DNA of 64,000 nt from Candidatus Limnocylindrales bacterium (GTDB lineage Bacteria; Chloroflexota; Limnocylindria; Limnocylindrales; CSP1-4). A program made the translations under genes and the position numbers. Below the pieces are notes generated by a model. It worked only from the letters and a program-made list of their open reading frames with translations, had not been told where the DNA came from and ran no database searches. Positions 53,836 through 60,195 of the stretch are shown piece by piece. The stretch lies in assembly GCA_049967415.1 (NCBI GenBank), contig JBMFSS010000001.1, positions 69,876-133,875 of the forward strand. Reading direction: 5' to 3'. The stretch's first letter is position 1; every line of letters begins with the position of its first letter.

Positions 53836-54084
53836 CCGTCGATCGGCGGCATCGGAGTCGGCCGCCGGGCACCTGGCACAGCTGCTTCGGGCGCAGCGGC
53901 CCCAGCCCTGGGGGCCAATGGCTCTGGTCAAAAGTGAGCCATAGCGCCTACTCTGCAGCGTCCGGACAGGGCGTTGACATGCGGGGTTCTGCCTCCGTCC
54001 GTGAGCCGCGCGGGCCGCGGCCACAGGAATCGGCTGACCATGCAGCGCCTGTCGCCGGACCCAGCGGTCGGTGGAGGCGTGCGC

Positions 54085-55029
54085 ATGCGAAACAAAGTGA
54101 CCGTGGTCGGTGCCGGCAACGTCGGGGCATCCACGGCCCAACGGATCCTGGAAGGCGGGCTGGCCGACGTGGTGCTGGTCGACATCGTCGAGGGACTGCC
54201 CCAGGGCAAGGCCCTCGACCTGGCCGAGGCGGCGCCGATCGTCGGGCACGGGGCCCACATCATCGGGACCAACGACTACGCGGAGACTGCCGGCTCGGAC
54301 GTGATCGTCATCACGTCCGGCCTCGCCCGACAGCCCGGGATGAGCCGGGATGACCTCCTGGCACGCAACGTGGAGATCGTTCGCTCCGTGGTGGAACAGG
54401 CGGCTCCCCGTTCACCCGATGCCGTGCTGATCGTGGTCACCAACCCGCTCGACGCCATGTGCCACGTGGCGCTCCGGGCCAGCGGCTTTCCGAGCCAGCG
54501 GGTCATCGGGATGGCCGGGGTGCTCGACACAGCCCGCTTCCGGACGTTCATCGCCATGGAGCTGGGCGTCTCGGTCACCAGTACCTCGGCGCTGGTGCTG
54601 GGCGGGCACGGCGACTCGATGGTGCCGCTCCCCAGCCGAACCACGGTGGGCGGGGTGCCCATCACCGAGCTGCTGAGCCCCGAGCAGATCGAGCGCCTCG
54701 TCACCCGCACCCGCAACGGGGGTGGCGAGATCGTTGCGCTGCTCAAGAGCGGGAGCGCCTACTACGCGCCGGCGGCGTCCATCTACCGCATGGTCGAAGC
54801 CATCCTCGAGGATCGGCAGGAGGTCCTGCCCTGCGCCACCTATCTCAACGGCGAGTACGGCCTCCAGGGCCTTTTCGTGGGTGTTCCCGTCCGGCTGGGC
54901 CGGCACGGCGTGGAACAGGTGCTGGAGATCTCCCTGACGGCGGACGAGCGCGCCGCGCTGGAGACCTCTGCCGCGGCAGTCCGAGAGCTTGTCCACCAGC
55001 TGGACAGCTTGCTGGCCCAGGCACATTAG
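54085..55029 (+). CDS. mdh: Malate dehydrogenase (LDH-like MDH)
   Basis: [19 protein letters not shown]...; Rossmann fold plus substrate loop. GGAGG RBS. Confidence 0.9.
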
Positions 55030-55102
55030 CCGGACGAGAGTCGTCCGGTGATCCGGGGGCGATCGGTCAGGTCGCCCCACTGCGAAGGAAGTGCGAGACT
55101 CC

Positions 55103-56449
55103 ATGACTTCCACCGATCCGCTGGAGGCTCCTCCGAGCGCGGACGTCGCCCGGCTGCACGTGGGCAGCACGGTCATTGACCTGCCCATCGTGAACGCCAC
55201 GGAGGGACAGCCAGCCATCAACATCGCGCCGTTGCTCGCGAAGGTCGGGGTCACCACCCTCGACTATGGCTACGGCAACACGGCCTCAACGCGCAGTGCC
55301 ATCACGTTCCTGGACGGGGACAAGGGCATCCTGCGCTACCGCGGGTATCCCATCGAGCAGCTCGCCGAGCGCTCGACGTTCCTCGAGACGGCCTACCTGC
55401 TGATCTACGGGGAGCTGCCCAACGAGGACCAGCTGGCCGATTGGACCGCCCGCATCAAGCGACATGCCCTCCTCCGCGAGGAGTTCAAGCGCTTCTTCGA
55501 GGCGTTCCCCACCGACGCCCACCCGATGGGCATCCTGGCTTCCGCGGTGAGCGCACTTTCCACCTTCCATCAGGGCGCGGATGACCCCCGCGACCCGCAG
55601 GGCGTGGAGGCGAGCACGGTCCGCCTGATCGCGCAGCTCCCGACCATCGCGGCCTTCGCGCACAAGCATGCCGTCGGCGAGCCCTTCGTCTACCCCGACT
55701 CGTCACTGGACTACGAGGCCAACTTCCTGCGCATGATGTTCGCGGTGCCCACGGAACCGTACGCGATCGATCCCGATGTGGCCCGGGCCCTCCGGATCCT
55801 CCTGATCCTCCACGCCGATCACGAGCAGAACTGCTCCGCCTCCACCGTGCGCATGGTCGGGTCGAGCCACGCCAACCTGTACGTCTCCATCGCGGGCGGG
55901 ATCGCCGCTCTCTGGGGGCCGCTGCACGGGGGTGCGAACCAGGAAGTCCTGGAGATGCTGCAGGCGATCGCAGCCGACGGCGGCAACGTGGGCAAGGCCG
56001 TCGACCGGGCAAAGGATCACAACGATCCGTTCCGACTGATGGGCTTCGGGCACCGCGTCTACAAGAACTACGACCCACGAGCCCGGATCATCAAGCAGGC
56101 TGCCGACACCATCCTGTCCAGGCTTGGCGCGGACGACCAGCTGCTCCAGATTGCCCTCCAGCTCGAGGACGTGGCGCTCCACGATCCCTACTTCATCGAC
56201 CACAAGCTCTACCCGAACGTGGACTTCTACAGCGGGCTGATCTACCGGGCACTGGGCTTCCCGACCGAGATGTTCACGGTGCTCTTCGCCATCGGCCGGC
56301 TACCGGGCTGGATCGCGCAGTGGCGCGAGATGATGGCCGATCCAGACTCGCGGATCGGGCGCCCTCGACAGCTCTATGTGGGCGAGCACGAGCGCCCGTA
56401 CGTGCCGCTGGAGGAGCGGCGCGCGGCTCAGGCGGCCGCATCCGCCTGA
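55103..56449 (+). CDS. gltA: Citrate synthase
   Basis: ...GYGNTASTRSAITFLDGDKGILRYRGYPIEQL...HADHEQN...GFGHRVYK..; canonical type II citrate synthase. Confidence 0.9.
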   Translation: MTSTDPLEAPPSADVARLHVGSTVIDLPIVNATEGQPAINIAPLLAKVGVTTLDYGYGNTASTRSAITFLDGDKGILRYRGYPIEQLAERSTFLETAYLLIYGELPNEDQLADWTARIKRHALLREEFKRFFEAFPTDAHPMGILASAVSALSTFHQGADDPRDPQGVEASTVRLIAQLPTIAAFAHKHAVGEPFVYPDSSLDYEANFLRMMFAVPTEPYAIDPDVARALRILLILHADHEQNCSASTVRMVGSSHANLYVSIAGGIAALWGPLHGGANQEVLEMLQAIAADGGNVGKAVDRAKDHNDPFRLMGFGHRVYKNYDPRARIIKQAADTILSRLGADDQLLQIALQLEDVALHDPYFIDHKLYPNVDFYSGLIYRALGFPTEMFTVLFAIGRLPGWIAQWREMMADPDSRIGRPRQLYVGEHERPYVPLEERRAAQAAASA

Positions 56450-56645
56450 GCCGGCAGAGCCCGCTCAGCAGCTCCGGCGGGGGTGCGTTTCGGTGGCGCC
56501 GGGCGCACCCCCGCGTGTCAATGGGCTCCGCGACGGGCCCTGACACGACGCGCGAACCTGATGCGCACGTGACGCACGGTCCGTCCAGCAGGGGCCGTGG
56601 CGCGCGCCGACGCTCGCCACCCAATCGGGCCCCGCTGGCATCTAC

Positions 56646-56984
56646 TCAGGAGCCTGGGGCATCCCCCGCGGCACGCGCCGCCTGGCGCGCGTCGCCCGAC
56701 GCGCCCAGCCGCACCTCCACACCCATCCGATCGAGCATGTGCCGCATGTCGTCGCCCATGTGATGGGCCACAACGACACCGACTCCGTGGTCCATCAGGA
56801 AGCGGGCGACCCTGGCGTGGTGCCCGCCCTCGGTCCCCGTATCGTGCAGGTCGCCCCAGCCCACATCGAACTCCTGCCAGTCGTCGAGACTGCCGGCCCC
56901 GACACCGGCGATGGCAACGCGGGACGCGCGTCCCCAGCTCGGGTCAATCTGCCCGTCGTCGGTCACGGGCACGCAAATCACCAT
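56646..56984 (-). CDS. NifB/NifX-family (dinitrogenase FeMo-cofactor-binding fold) small protein
   Basis: 112 aa, MVICVPVTDDGQIDPSWGRASRVAIAG...FLMDHGVGVVVAHHMGDDMRHMLDRMGVEVRLG, matching the Nitro_FeMo-Co-like fold. Confidence 0.6.
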   Translation of the reverse strand: MVICVPVTDDGQIDPSWGRASRVAIAGVGAGSLDDWQEFDVGWGDLHDTGTEGGHHARVARFLMDHGVGVVVAHHMGDDMRHMLDRMGVEVRLGASGDARQAARAAGDAPGS

Positions 56985-57237
56985 GGATGGCCCTCCGGGG
57001 TTCTGGGATTGATGTCAAAGAGTGTGCCGCACGCCGTGCGTTCGCGCACCGCGCCGCCGCTCATGGCGCCGCGGTGCGCCGTGTGCCCGGATCCGGGCAA
57101 CCCACGCTGAACCGGCCGGCCCCACGCAGTGAGCCATGGCTGCACGGGGCCGGGCACCGGGCGGCCCCGCGGGGCTGCCCGGTGCGTGCATGGAGAAGAG
57201 CCGGATCACCGGCGCCCGGCCTCGATCGGCCGCGCAA

Positions 57238-57609
57238 CTACACCTCCGGGGCCGAGCCGCTCTCCCCTTTGCGTTCGGATTCGGTGCCGGTCAGCTCGGC
57301 GAGGTCGGCCTCCACGCCCCGCACCTCGTCACGCAGCGCCGCGAGGTAGGCCTCGAGCTGTGCTGCCGCTGCGCTCCGGGAGGCCGGCGCGTACCGTCCG
57401 GCAGGATACCGGCGGTACCCATACCCCGGCTCGAAACCAGGCTCATACCCGTAGCCGGCTCGGTACCCGAAGCCGGGCCCATACCCCCGGCCGGGACCGT
57501 ATCCATAGCCGCGACCGTAGCCGTACCCGGCACCCCAGCCCGGGCCCCAGCCGTGGCAGTTGTCGGGACCCCAACATCCATGCCCGTGATATCCATGCCC
57601 GTAACCCAT
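57238..57609 (-). CDS. Gly/Tyr-rich protein with Cys/His cluster and C-terminal coiled-coil segment (123 aa)
   Basis: Perfect RBS AAGGAGG 7 nt upstream of the ATG. MGYGHGYHGHGCWGPDNCHGWGPGWGAGYGYGRGYGYGPGRGYGPGFGYRAGYGYEPGFEPGYGYRRY..AQLEAYLAALRDEVRGVEADLAELTG. The start lies 3 nt after the PadR stop. Confidence 0.55.
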   Translation of the reverse strand: MGYGHGYHGHGCWGPDNCHGWGPGWGAGYGYGRGYGYGPGRGYGPGFGYRAGYGYEPGFEPGYGYRRYPAGRYAPASRSAAAAQLEAYLAALRDEVRGVEADLAELTGTESERKGESGSAPEV

Positions 57610-57611
57610 CT

Positions 57612-58043
57612 TCAGGCCTCCTTGCCTGCTTCCGCCGAGACCGCTCCTCCGTGCACCGAGCGCTTGTACTCGGCAAGAAACTCGCCCACCAGGCGAGCTC
57701 GCTCCTGCATCACGGCGACCCACTCTGCAAGCCTCGCATCGCCCGACTCGGTCAGGACGTACTCCCGCCGACGCGCGCCGGCCAGCGGGCTCGTCCACTC
57801 GGACCGGACCAGGCCGGTCATCTCGAGTTCCCGCAGCGTCCGGTAGAGCTCGCCCACGTCCACCGCGCGTGGGGCCACCCCCAGTACGTTCAGGCGCGCG
57901 ACCAGGCCGTATCCGTGGTGCGTGCCGCCGGCGATCAGGACCAGCAGGAACGGCTCCAGCCAGCGGTGCCGCGGGCCGGTCGGGCGCCAACCACGACCCT
58001 GGCCGTGATGCGCCTCGGGTTGATGGTGGAAGTGTTCGCTCAT
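57612..58043 (-). CDS. PadR family transcriptional regulator
   Basis: ...RHRWLEPFLLVLIAGGTHHGYGLVARLNVLGV...GELYRTLRELEMTGLVRSEW...RREYVLTESG; classic PadR wHTH. Confidence 0.8.
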   Translation of the reverse strand: MSEHFHHQPEAHHGQGRGWRPTGPRHRWLEPFLLVLIAGGTHHGYGLVARLNVLGVAPRAVDVGELYRTLRELEMTGLVRSEWTSPLAGARRREYVLTESGDARLAEWVAVMQERARLVGEFLAEYKRSVHGGAVSAEAGKEA

Positions 58044-58177
58044 ATGCTTGTGTCATGTATACGTCTGGACCATGGTACCGGCCAGTGCCGAATGGCCCCC
58101 GCCGCTTCGTCGCTGGCGCCTGACGGCCTCATCCACCGGCTCGCACCCCGGTCCGCAGCCTCGCCTACACTGACCGC

Positions 58178-59119
58178 ATGAACGAGATCAGACTTGGTGC
58201 GCTCTGCTGGAACCAGTACACGGACTGGTCCGCGCTCCTCGAGGCGGGCGTCCGGGCGGACGCTCTCGGATACGACACCCTCTGGACGTGGGACCACGTC
58301 TATCCGATTGTCGGCGACCCCCACGGGCCCAACTACGAGGGCTGGCTGACCATCACCGCGTGGGCGGCCCGGACGGAGCACGTCCGCGTCGGACTGATGG
58401 TCGGCGCGAACCCGTACCGTGAGCCCACCCTGGTCGCCAAGATGGCCACCACCCTCGACCACATCAGCAACGGCCGCGCCATCCTCGGTATCGGTGCCGC
58501 CTGGTTCGAGGGCGAGGCGCACGACTTTGGCTTCGAATTCGGTTCGGGCGCGCCGGAGCGATTGCGCTGGCTGGGTCAGGCGCTCCCGATCATGCGGGGA
58601 ATGCTGGACGGGACCGAGCCTTCCGCGCCGGAGGGCTCGCGCTACCGCGCCTCCCGCGTGCGGAACGACCCCCTGCCCGTCCAGCGGCACCTGCCGATCT
58701 GCATCGGGGGCGGCGGCGAGAAAGTGACCTTGCGGCTTGTTGCCCGCTACGCGGACATGAACAACCTCGGCGGTGGCATCGAGGCCGTGCGGCACAAGGA
58801 GGAGATCCTGCTCGAGCACTGCGCGGCGGTTGGGCGCGACCCGGCCGAGATCGAGCGCACGGTCGGTGCCGGCGTGGTGCTGATTCGCGACAACCGCGCC
58901 GAGGCTGAGCGACTGCTCCGGGAGGCGTTCCAGCGCAACCGGGTGGCCCAGCCGTGGACCGACCAGCCGGTGGGCACCCCCGAGGACGTGGCCGAGCGCC
59001 TCGCCCCATATGTCGAGCTCGGCTACCGGCACCTGATCGCGGCGTTTCCGCCCACTTACGATGCGGAGTCGATGACCCGGCTCGTCACCGAGGTCAAGCC
59101 GCTCCTCGAGCGAGCGTAA
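58178..59119 (+). CDS. LLM-class (luciferase-like) F420-dependent oxidoreductase
   Basis: 313 aa, ...GYDTLWTWDH...RVGLMVGANPYREPTLVAKMATTLDHISNGRAILGIGAAW...; LLM TIM-barrel motifs. Confidence 0.8.
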   Translation: MNEIRLGALCWNQYTDWSALLEAGVRADALGYDTLWTWDHVYPIVGDPHGPNYEGWLTITAWAARTEHVRVGLMVGANPYREPTLVAKMATTLDHISNGRAILGIGAAWFEGEAHDFGFEFGSGAPERLRWLGQALPIMRGMLDGTEPSAPEGSRYRASRVRNDPLPVQRHLPICIGGGGEKVTLRLVARYADMNNLGGGIEAVRHKEEILLEHCAAVGRDPAEIERTVGAGVVLIRDNRAEAERLLREAFQRNRVAQPWTDQPVGTPEDVAERLAPYVELGYRHLIAAFPPTYDAESMTRLVTEVKPLLERA

Positions 59120-59475
59120 CCCCACCGACTGGCGGACCGGTCGCCGGCCACCCCGGGCGCGCCGCCCAGCCCGCGATTCGTGGATCGGGGCGTAAGCGAG
59201 CGGTAATAGCCGGCCCGTATAGTTTCGCCACCGTCCGCCGAGATCCGAAGTGCCCCGGGCCTCGGCGGACGCGGTGTGTTGGACAAAACGACCCGGCGAT
59301 GGCGCCCGGGATGGGGCCGAGCCTCTGGCCACAGGCTGCCGCACCTGCCATCGCGCCCGCCCGTTGGCACCCATGAGGGCCACTTCGTCGGGCCGGACAC
59401 GGCCACTCTGAACTCCGCCGCAACCTCGCACGGCCCGCATGCTTCCGGGTCGCGCGACCAGCACAGGAGGTCACC

Positions 59476-60195
59476 GTGGACCAGCCTCCCGAGGACCGGG
59501 CCCCCGAGGCATGGCGGTCGATCGACGTGACGCCGATCGAGGAGGCGCCGCCCAGCCTGGACCCGGCAGCCCGTCGCCGGTTCATGGCGCTGGGCGCGCT
59601 GGCGGCGATCTGCCTGCTCGCGACCGCTGGGCTACTGCTCCTCTCGCCCACCGGTTCCGGCCCGGTCGCCGCCGGCAGCGATGGAGGCCCCGCGGGGTCG
59701 GCCACGCCAGCCATCGAGGGGGTCGCCGGACAGCCATCGGCTCCGGGCGCCTGGATGATCGACGTCGGCGGCGCCGTGGCTCGGCCCGGCGTGTACGCCC
59801 TCCCAGCCGGGAGCCGCGTGGCCGACGCGATCCGTGCCGCCGGCGGATTCGGACCGCAGGTCGACGCGAGCGCGGTCACCTCGACGTTGAACCTGGCCGA
59901 AGTCCTCAGGGATGGCCAGAAGATCGTGGTGCCGCAGCGCGGAAACCCGGCGCAGCGCAGTGCAACCGGATCGGCAGCCGGGGCCCAGGGCGGGCATGGC
60001 GCCCTCATCGACCTGAACAGCGCCTCCGCCAGCGAGCTCGACGCCTTGCCGGGCGTGGGGCCGGTGACGGCCGCCAAGATCATCGCGGCCCGGGAGGAAC
60101 GCCCCTTCCGGACGGTGGATGAACTGGCGACCCGGAAGGTGGTCTCCGCCTCGGTGCTCGCCAAGATCCGGGGCCTGGTGACGGTCGGCGGCTGA
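59476..60195 (+). CDS. comEA: Competence protein ComEA (SLBB + helix-hairpin-helix DNA-binding)
   Basis: GTG start with an AGGAGG RBS. TM anchor, then ...IDVGGAVARPGVYALPAGSRVADAIRAAGG (SLBB) and IDLNSASASELDALPGVGPVTAAKIIAAREERPFRTVDEL (HhH2). Confidence 0.85.
   Translation: MDQPPEDRAPEAWRSIDVTPIEEAPPSLDPAARRRFMALGALAAICLLATAGLLLLSPTGSGPVAAGSDGGPAGSATPAIEGVAGQPSAPGAWMIDVGGAVARPGVYALPAGSRVADAIRAAGGFGPQVDASAVTSTLNLAEVLRDGQKIVVPQRGNPAQRSATGSAAGAQGGHGALIDLNSASASELDALPGVGPVTAAKIIAAREERPFRTVDELATRKVVSASVLAKIRGLVTVGG

Follow-up and report, generated by a model that had tools for sequence, protein, structure and literature searches.

A PadR-family regulator, a small Gly/Tyr-rich protein and a NifX-like protein are encoded one after another on the minus strand of a 64,000-nucleotide stretch of DNA (the window; GC content of 71%) from Candidatus Limnocylindrales bacterium (contig JBMFSS010000001.1, positions 69,876 to 133,875). 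We propose, with a probability of about 0.45, that these padR, duf5320-like and nifX-like genes form an autoregulated operon which would sense and handle a transition-metal ion or a small metallocluster. The resemblance to metal-binding proteins noticed in an earlier note on this DNA agrees with the best-supported reading of the locus: the putative Cys and His ligands are confined to the N-terminus of the small protein and are mirrored in an N-terminal tail of the PadR. A metal role was further supported by relatives that include metallothionein-like sequences near CDF, ArsR and ArsP genes. In agreement with the earlier note, no characterised function of the two-gene arrangement turned up in the literature searches. 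The three genes and the ribosome-binding site of the small gene were located as follows.

57612 to 58043, minus strand: PadR-family (short, subfamily-2-like) winged-helix repressor of 143 amino acids (aa), Pfam PF03551
57617 to 57623, minus strand: Shine-Dalgarno sequence AAGGAGG, 7 nt before the ATG of the small gene, inside the PadR codons AAG GAG GCC TGA (K-E-A-stop)
57238 to 57609, minus strand: divergent DUF5320-superfamily protein of 123 aa (the 'GY-rich' gene), assigned from its translation, a sub-threshold Pfam match and a helix comparison
56646 to 56984, minus strand: Nitro_FeMo-Co (NifX/orange-protein-like) protein of 112 aa, the third gene of the module

The flagged pair consisted of two minus-strand genes, PadR (58043..57612) and the 123-aa gene (57609..57238), so that the reported order of a PadR gene and a Gly/Tyr-rich, Cys/His-containing gene was recovered at the given coordinates with the exact 123-aa sequence. 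The AAGGAGG ribosome-binding site ahead of the small gene was confirmed at 57623..57617. The spacing between the two genes, reported as 3 nt, is in fact 2 nt, as the PadR stop codon TGA (57614-57612) is followed by AG and then by the ATG at 57609. The location of the Shine-Dalgarno sequence within the last codons of PadR points to translational coupling of the two genes.

Conservation of the gene arrangement

Loci of the window type (class 1 of the four sequence classes described below) were pooled from exact-protein lookups, species-representative genomes and a metagenome scan, which yielded 38 intact genes, 31 of them distinct. Of the 35 loci with sufficient upstream sequence, 34 had a PadR gene as the immediate upstream neighbour, and the 35th contained a partial PadR hit. 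Across the family, the PadR ending (K/R/T)E(A/V)-stop harbours GGAGG and is separated by 1-2 nt from the ATG of the partner. This junction was present in 11 of the 12 parsed loci, the 12th (L016) having a frameshifted PadR. The dedicated pairing with PadR, previously only suggested, was thus found to be conserved in related loci, together with the placement of the Shine-Dalgarno sequence at the PadR stop codon. A junction of this kind also occurred in three examined loci of classes 2 and 3, where PadR and its partner were separated by a gap of 1-5 nt.

A Nitro_FeMo-Co gene was present no more than 400 nt downstream of the pair in 24 of the 29 loci with enough downstream DNA (7 genes of the window type and 17 of an MTH1175-like type), and therefore the unit usually consists of three genes. 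In the nearest relatives, L023 and L024, the partner protein was 86% identical and the order of the luciferase-like oxidoreductase, PadR, partner and NifX-like genes was the same as in the window. All eight class-1 loci found in the searched species-representative genomes belonged to metagenome-assembled genomes of Chloroflexota (Limnocylindria or Chloroflexia), to which the window shows its closest similarity. The examined loci of classes 2 and 3 kept PadR and had no adjacent NifX-like gene. The canonical DUF5320 genes were clustered with two MinD-like (CbiA/ParA-Fer4) 4Fe-4S ATPases and Nitro_FeMo-Co genes. Two linkages thus meet in the small protein, one to PadR (classes 1-3) and the other to the NifX-like protein (class 1 and canonical DUF5320).

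The neighbours of the class-3 locus L021 included a CDF transporter, two ArsR genes, ArsP, a chromate transporter and DGC domains. Genes for hemerythrin/HHE, OsmC, Usp, TusA, DsrE and CDF proteins were identified in other neighbourhoods, hemerythrin in seven loci.

Architecture of the small protein

Three parts of the 123-aa protein were distinguished.

57535 to 57609, minus strand: N-terminal Cys/His knob, residues 1-25, MGYGHGYHGHGCWGPDNCHGWGPGW, with 2 Cys and 4 His; putative metal-binding site
57379 to 57534, minus strand: disordered Gly/Tyr/Pro/Arg linker, residues 26-77, with the basic patch YRRYPAGRY at its end, delimited by AlphaFold2 and family composition
57262 to 57378, minus strand: C-terminal amphipathic helix, residues 78-116, about 3.5 Leu/Val heptads; conserved core and probable oligomerisation zipper

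Residues 8-25 of the protein read HGHGCWGPDNCHGWGPGW, and residues 1-77 contain 27 Gly and 14 Tyr. At least four Cys and His residues were present within the first 25 positions in 69 of 71 family members, with a median of 2 Cys and 4 His there; outside this segment the median of Cys plus His was 0 in the same 71 sequences. The linker ranged from 21 to 52 aa and varied widely in sequence, its composition across the family being 25% G, 15% R, 12% P and 11% Y. Thus, of the protein of (GYG)n/(YGYG) repeats and Cys/His residues portrayed in the earlier note, the Cys/His tip proved to be conserved, whereas the GYG repeats lie in the variable linker and do not form a conserved core. The features kept across the family were the linker composition, the Cys/His tip and the C-terminal helix.

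An AlphaFold2 model, built with the 71-sequence alignment, predicted a single helix at residues 78-116, mostly with a predicted local distance difference test score (pLDDT) above 90, and disorder throughout residues 1-77 (pLDDT of approximately 42-51 at residues 1-70 and up to 71 at residues 71-80). The coiled coil that had been predicted to follow the Cys/His cluster therefore has its counterpart in one confidently modelled helix with heptads. Its Leu/Val residues follow a 4-3 heptad spacing (L85, L89, L92, V96, V99, L103, L106), which makes the term 'coiled coil' reasonable, and positions L85, E86, L89, L92, D94, E95, R97, A98, E100, D102 and L103 were nearly invariant. A sequence search of the PDB with the family profile returned weak matches to designed dimeric coiled coils and nothing else.

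The 123-aa open reading frame (ORF) is a real gene, and the proposal that it arose by chance in GC-rich DNA, or is a decaying remnant, is effectively refuted by conservation. Such a reading could invoke the GC content at third codon positions (GC3), 0.76 in the small gene versus 0.83-0.89 in the neighbouring genes, as well as an interrupted copy in one lineage and the absence of the exact window protein from the lookup collection. Gly and Tyr codon usage accounts for the lower GC3. A strong Shine-Dalgarno sequence, the conserved junction, the confident helix prediction and the 31 distinct intact orthologues in synteny all argue against it. The helix region is under purifying selection: across 28 helix-core codons, the proportion of synonymous differences (pS) was 0.535 and that of nonsynonymous differences (pN) 0.206 (55 locus pairs from 11 loci). 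Overlapping ORFs in the other strand and frames lacked the signature of low GC content at second codon positions and high GC3 seen in the true neighbouring genes. In a collection of 5.8 billion proteins, the single sequence retrieved 20 homologues and a profile about 75 cluster representatives, which make up a tight family, and an exhaustive hidden Markov model scan of 1.84 billion representatives yielded 134 matches at E <=0.001.

Two further candidate identities were rejected. A secreted or cell-wall Gly-rich protein was dismissed on the grounds that no signal peptide or hydrophobic N-terminus was found, and a precursor of a ribosomally synthesised and post-translationally modified peptide on the grounds that no modifying enzymes are conserved nearby.

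Relationship to DUF5320 and sequence classes

A Pfam search, proposed earlier for the GY-rich protein, did reveal a relationship to DUF5320 (PF17253), at a score below the gathering cutoff: 22.5 bits (cutoff 27), E = 2.6e-4, over positions 11-99 of 99. Twelve of 21 close homologues matched DUF5320 at E <=0.01. The hhalign comparison with 10 canonical DUF5320 proteins gave a probability of 98.2% (E = 2.7e-14), only over the 36 columns of the C-terminal helix. In place of the canonical N-terminal motif GPxGxGPMTGRGxGxC, the window protein contains MGYGHGYHGHGCWGP. The helix LExYLxxLxxExxAVExxLxxL is common to four sequence classes.

Class 1: the window type, beginning with MGC.HGHGYHGHGCWGP or MRYHHGYGCYGHG
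Class 2: beginning with M[GS]C[WG]HGWHGCGPWYGPP
Class 3: proteins of about 85-110 residues that resemble metallothioneins, with as many as 14 Cys or 19 His
Class 4: canonical DUF5320, beginning with MPRGDRTGPxGxGPMTGRGxGxC

No Pfam or NCBIfam assignment was obtained for classes 2 and 3, and no NCBIfam family for the small window protein; some class-3 proteins carry the NCBI label DUF5320. A profile of classes 2 and 3 retrieved 1172 clusters. Examples of class 3 are P0105, P0139, P0170 and P0191 and the loci L019 and L021, with PadRs bearing Cys/His tails upstream. With 2 Cys in 123 aa, the window protein itself lacks the high Cys content of bacterial metallothioneins.

Two longer proteins carried a DUF5320-like tail. 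In P0156 (245 aa) it is joined to a MarR domain, either as a genuine fusion or possibly by read-through. In P0186 (208 aa) it is joined to PadR in a single polypeptide; a PadR-partner fusion was rejected here, as the C-terminal helix of PadR is replaced by out-of-frame sequence, probably through a frameshift.

The PadR regulator and its candidate operator

The window PadR matched PF03551 at 47.1 bits over profile positions 1-75 of 75, above the gathering cutoff of 27, and its nearest solved relatives are TM0937 (2esh, 118 aa) and LmrR (3f8b, 116 aa). With 143 aa, approximately 30 of which appear to form an N-terminal tail, it falls within the LmrR-like subfamily 2, which is characterised by short proteins that join a winged-helix domain to one C-terminal helix (PMC3506622). 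The best NCBIfam match was the polyhydroxybutyrate (PHB)-responsive repressor PhaQ (TIGR02719). Identity with the PhaQ/phasin system was rejected, as the score of 60.3 bits is far under the equivalog cutoff of 139.35. The tail was delimited as follows.

57993 to 58043, minus strand: His-rich N-terminal PadR tail MSEHFHHQPEAHHGQGR, with 5 His, preceding the conserved GWRPxGPRHRWLEPF

The tail sequence varies, and all 28 distinct orthologous PadR tails contained 3-8 His within about 14-20 residues, followed family-wide by GW(R/S)PxGPR(H/R)RWLEPF. In one locus of class 2 and two of class 3, the tails were His-rich or Cys/His-rich in step with the partners. Beside the metallothionein-like class-3 partners (two loci), the tails hold Cys residues (HCC, CRC) and the partners CxC or CCC. 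The type of the putative ligands thus co-varies between the PadR tail and the partner across the sequence classes.

Two conserved motifs were recognised in the promoter region of padR.

58042 to 58060, minus strand: AT-rich inverted repeat ATACATG-N7-CATAT, overlapping the PadR ATG (58043-58041) and a -10-like TATACA; candidate PadR auto-operator
58085 to 58097, minus strand: GGCC-N4-GGCaC, which reads GGCC-N4-GGCCCT in the family consensus and precedes the AT-rich palindrome by about 25 nt

Alignment of 29 distinct PadR promoters revealed that the AT-rich repeat, in its family form (T)ATA(T/C)ATG-N7-CATAT, is conserved in position. Many promoters contain a perfect ATGTCT-N-AGACAT palindrome with ATGT/ACAT half-sites and a 5-nt spacer. 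Such half-sites are the operator signature of the PadR family, with the canonical form ATGT-N8-10-ACAT (PMC3506622). The 30 nt around the repeat were 100% identical in L023 and L024, with differing flanks, and the sole match to the repeat in the 64-kb window was in this promoter. This pattern suggests autorepression by PadR at the 58042-58060 palindrome.

The GGCC-N4-GGCCCT motif was also conserved in position in the 29 promoters. Its occurrence in the window (3 matches versus 2.2 expected) was not above chance, and no match was obtained with a stricter consensus. A second operator, an activator site and a part of the promoter are candidates for its role. Strict regular expressions for both promoter motifs recovered 12-13 of 32 loci; the alignment indicated that the motifs are present in a more degenerate form. 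The spacer of the GGCC motif occurs in the reverse-complement sense in L004. A consensus promoter and terminator scan found no sigma-70 match and no canonical terminator, with one site inside the PadR coding sequence, and an Rfam scan of 56000-58600 returned a spurious palindrome hit only.

The third gene and the intergenic stretch

The third-gene protein matched PF02579 at 42.4 bits, above the gathering cutoff of 26.3. It is His-rich (HH at residues 55-56 and 74-75) with a single Cys, and no solved close homologue was found by sequence. One structured element lies between the small gene and the third gene.

57100 to 57237, minus strand: GC-rich, strongly structured stretch directly after the stop codon of the small gene

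The RNA of this stretch was predicted to fold at -91.6 kcal/mol (z = -3.7), and about 120 nt of it are missing from the closest relatives L023 and L024, as judged from an alignment gap. It may be a terminator without a T-tail, an insulator or an inserted repeat element. In contrast to this insert, the approximately 95 nt upstream of the NifX-like ATG (56985-57080, minus strand) are highly conserved with respect to L023 and L024 and may represent a separate regulatory element for the third gene. The segment contains short inverted repeats of the GTGCG-CGAA-CGCAC type and a GGAGGG ribosome-binding site.

Proposed mechanism and alternative explanations

According to the proposed mechanism, PadR would repress its own operon at the 58042-58060 palindrome, and translational coupling would supply the sensor and its partner in matched amounts. 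The zipper would dimerise or oligomerise the small protein and so join the Cys/His knobs into a metal site. Upon a rise in the metal or cluster, or damage to the cluster by oxidants, the PadR tail would become occupied and the operon derepressed. Occupation of the tail could be direct or occur by hand-over from the co-made partner, in a manner comparable to the transfer of copper from CopZ to CopY. The small protein may then buffer or chaperone the metal, like SmtA under SmtB, and pass it to or from the NifX-like carrier. The predominance of His among the putative ligands of all three proteins would favour Ni, Co, Zn, Cu or Fe ions over an all-Cys Fe-S site.

Several observations weigh against this proposal. 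DUF5320 is a catalogued family of no known function, and the link to it spans about 36 helical residues, over which a coiled-coil composition can raise similarity scores artificially. The window protein contains only 2 Cys in its 123 aa and has Y3 where most relatives have C3, and His-rich tails can be adventitious. The window palindrome is degenerate (ATGA-N5-GCAT), and the operator spacing is 5-7 nt versus 8-10 nt for canonical PadR sites. In this genome, the structured insert of about 120 nt may set the NifX-like gene apart from the transcript of the pair. The gene neighbourhoods are heterogeneous and include sulfur relay, redox and metal genes. Moreover, the module has decayed in one metagenomic lineage (L028, L030, L032, L036, L037; e.g., L032:1270-1660), in which only the C-terminal part of PadR is left and the partner begins with MGYGPGYGHGPGYG, lacks the Cys/His tip and is interrupted by a stop. 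The NifX-like gene was kept in three of the five contigs of this lineage. The decayed copy implies that the module is dispensable there.

A broader interpretation is that the pair represents a new class of metalloregulatory module, in which a PadR sensor would read metal through an N-terminal Cys/His tail and be produced in step with a zipper-oligomerised, disordered metal-binding partner, and that the DUF5320 helix module is the missing small subunit of metallocluster systems of the orange-protein (ORP) type, whereby this orphan family would gain its first testable function. We put this forward tentatively and regard it as rather doubtful. The ligand content of such a partner would be tuned over more than 1000 protein clusters, with 1 Cys at one end and about 14 Cys or 19 His at the other. 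Neither the Cys/His-tipped branch, nor its coupling to a His/Cys-tailed PadR, nor the conserved candidate operator was described in the literature searched, in which DUF5320 received incidental mentions only. Searches for PadR together with metallothionein, Rv3488 or a cysteine-rich small protein retrieved nothing relevant.

The same evidence can be read in other ways. The small protein might be a co-repressor or anti-repressor of PadR, acting through its zipper on the C-terminal dimerisation helix of PadR or through bZIP-like DNA binding, perhaps at GGCC-N4-GGCCCT, with the Cys/His tips of both proteins as a shared, signal-dependent metal or redox bridge. The coupling over 1-2 nt implies near-stoichiometric synthesis, and the linkage to PadR holds in three sequence classes, whereas that to NifX does not. 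The HHGHGW(R/S)P of orthologous PadR tails (HHGQGRGWRP in the window) resembles the HGHGCWGP of the partner, the zipper is preceded by a conserved patch rich in Arg, one relative gave a weak bZIP_2 match, and the promoter contains a second conserved palindrome. The basic patch of the window protein is, however, weak and set apart from the zipper, and the same helix occurs in canonical DUF5320 proteins with no adjacent PadR. Regulator-partner fusions would also fit (P0156, combining MarR with a DUF5320-like tail, and P0186), but P0186 is probably a frameshift artefact. On balance, we consider a co-regulator unlikely. The same is true of a second alternative, to which we give an equally small share: the small protein would be an accessory or scaffold of an ORP-like Fe-S or heterometallic-cluster system with the NifX-like carrier, perhaps holding a cluster between zipper-paired N-termini, and PadR would be a local regulator responding to another signal, such as oxidants or aromatic compounds. 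Orp3/Orp4-like ATPase and Nitro_FeMo-Co genes surround the canonical DUF5320 genes, the NifX-like gene follows the pair in 24 of 29 loci, and TusA and DsrE sulfur-relay genes occur as neighbours. Hemerythrin/HHE genes are likewise recurrent, and the HHE family includes di-iron Fe-S repair proteins. Yet neither the surroundings of the window gene nor the examined class-1 loci contained an Orp3/Orp4-type ATPase, PadR is retained in classes 2 and 3 with no adjacent NifX-like gene, the putative ligands are His-dominated, and the PadR tail itself carries ligand residues.

Less probable still is a reading in line with the earlier note, in which the small protein would be a stress protein of low complexity, either phase-separating or structural (comparable to a granule coat or a condensate scaffold, as in phasins or sulfur-globule proteins), with its synthesis set by a PhaQ-like PadR and with metal binding being incidental. 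The disordered linker of 50 aa has an aromatic, Gly and Arg 'sticker-spacer' composition, and PhaQ, the best NCBIfam match of PadR at 60 bits, offers a precedent, being a PadR-type repressor whose partner is the small coat protein PhaP. The PhaQ score is nevertheless far under the cutoff of 139, and no granule-related genes are located nearby. The GY repeats are not conserved, the linker shrinking to about 21 aa with a changed composition, and conservation falls on the Cys/His tip and the zipper.

Comparison with known systems

The window branch and canonical DUF5320 proteins both combine a disordered N-terminal part rich in Gly, aromatic residues and Arg with one C-terminal LExxLxxLxxExxAVExxLxxL helix, and both are associated with Nitro_FeMo-Co genes. 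They differ in that canonical members adjoin MinD-like 4Fe-4S ATPases and the window branch adjoins PadR, and in that the canonical family occurs in anaerobic bacteria and archaea and the window branch in Chloroflexota. The ORP complex of Desulfovibrio and other anaerobes is specified by a gene set comprising the Orp3/Orp4 ATPases, the orange protein Orp8 and MrpORP (PMC6345978). Canonical DUF5320 clusters match this set (PMC6345978), and the window keeps the DUF5320-like and Nitro_FeMo-Co genes. In contrast, no Orp3/Orp4/MrpORP-type ATPase adjoins the window pair, which in this respect departs from an ORP cluster. The regulator here is a PadR, whereas ORP is regulated by sigma-54 and DVU2106, and the host is a high-GC member of the Chloroflexota, whereas the ORP models are strict anaerobes. 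The ORP papers searched described no DUF5320-type gene.

Winged-helix repressors with metal ligands are paired with small metal-binding proteins in CopY/CopZ of Enterococcus hirae and SmtB/SmtA of Synechococcus. CopZ, of ferredoxin-like HMA fold, donates metal to CopY, a BlaI/MecI-family protein with a C-terminal CxCxxxxCxC; SmtA, a Cys-rich metallothionein, buffers the metal under the ArsR-family SmtB. The likeness to the window pair is a functional analogy only, with no relationship in sequence or fold: the window repressor is of the PadR type with an N-terminal His tail, and its partner consists of a disordered segment and a zipper. As in LmrR, TM0937 and bcPadR, the window PadR combines a winged-helix domain with a single C-terminal dimerisation helix; next to its own gene lies a candidate operator, which in many related promoters has ATGT/ACAT half-sites. 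It differs from these regulators in the extra His-rich N-terminal tail of about 30 aa, in the spacing of the candidate operator (5-7 nt, not 8-10 nt) and in the co-transcribed gene, which encodes a tiny protein rich in metal-ligand residues, not a pump or decarboxylase. In Bacillus megaterium, the PadR-type repressor PhaQ is followed by the small helical protein PhaP. The window pair shares this architecture, but its partner is unrelated to phasins and no PHB genes are present nearby.

Significance

PadR regulators are known sensors of phenolics, drugs and peptides. If the metal-operon reading is correct, the metal-sensor families would be joined by a PadR lineage in which the metal-ligand tail is conserved and a partner rich in metal ligands is obligately coupled. 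Both DUF5320 and the non-nitrogenase Nitro_FeMo-Co (orange-protein-like) proteins are orphans of wide distribution, to which a compact three-gene unit with a regulator, a candidate operator and a Cys/His gradient among relatives may offer a tractable entry point. The module may also be relevant to metal homeostasis in poorly studied soil Chloroflexota. Should the linker matter, the small protein would exemplify, in bacteria, a disordered protein that is tethered by a zipper and responds to metal.

Flanking genes and additional observations

The genes on either side of the module were housekeeping or unrelated.

53974 to 56449 and 58178 to 60195, plus strand: flanking genes

They encode malate/lactate dehydrogenase, citrate synthase, a luciferase-like (LLM-class) oxidoreductase divergent from PadR, and a ComEA-like protein with SLBB and helix-hairpin-helix domains. 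The weak DUF5320 relationship, the NifX-like third gene (56984..56646) and the His-rich PadR tail had been missed in the earlier note. A JGI contig with P0011 contained the PadR-partner pair, without a NifX-like gene, among genes for an integrase, Prim-Pol, HNH, an IS21-type IstB and a DDE transposase, which suggests that the two-gene module can travel on a mobile element.

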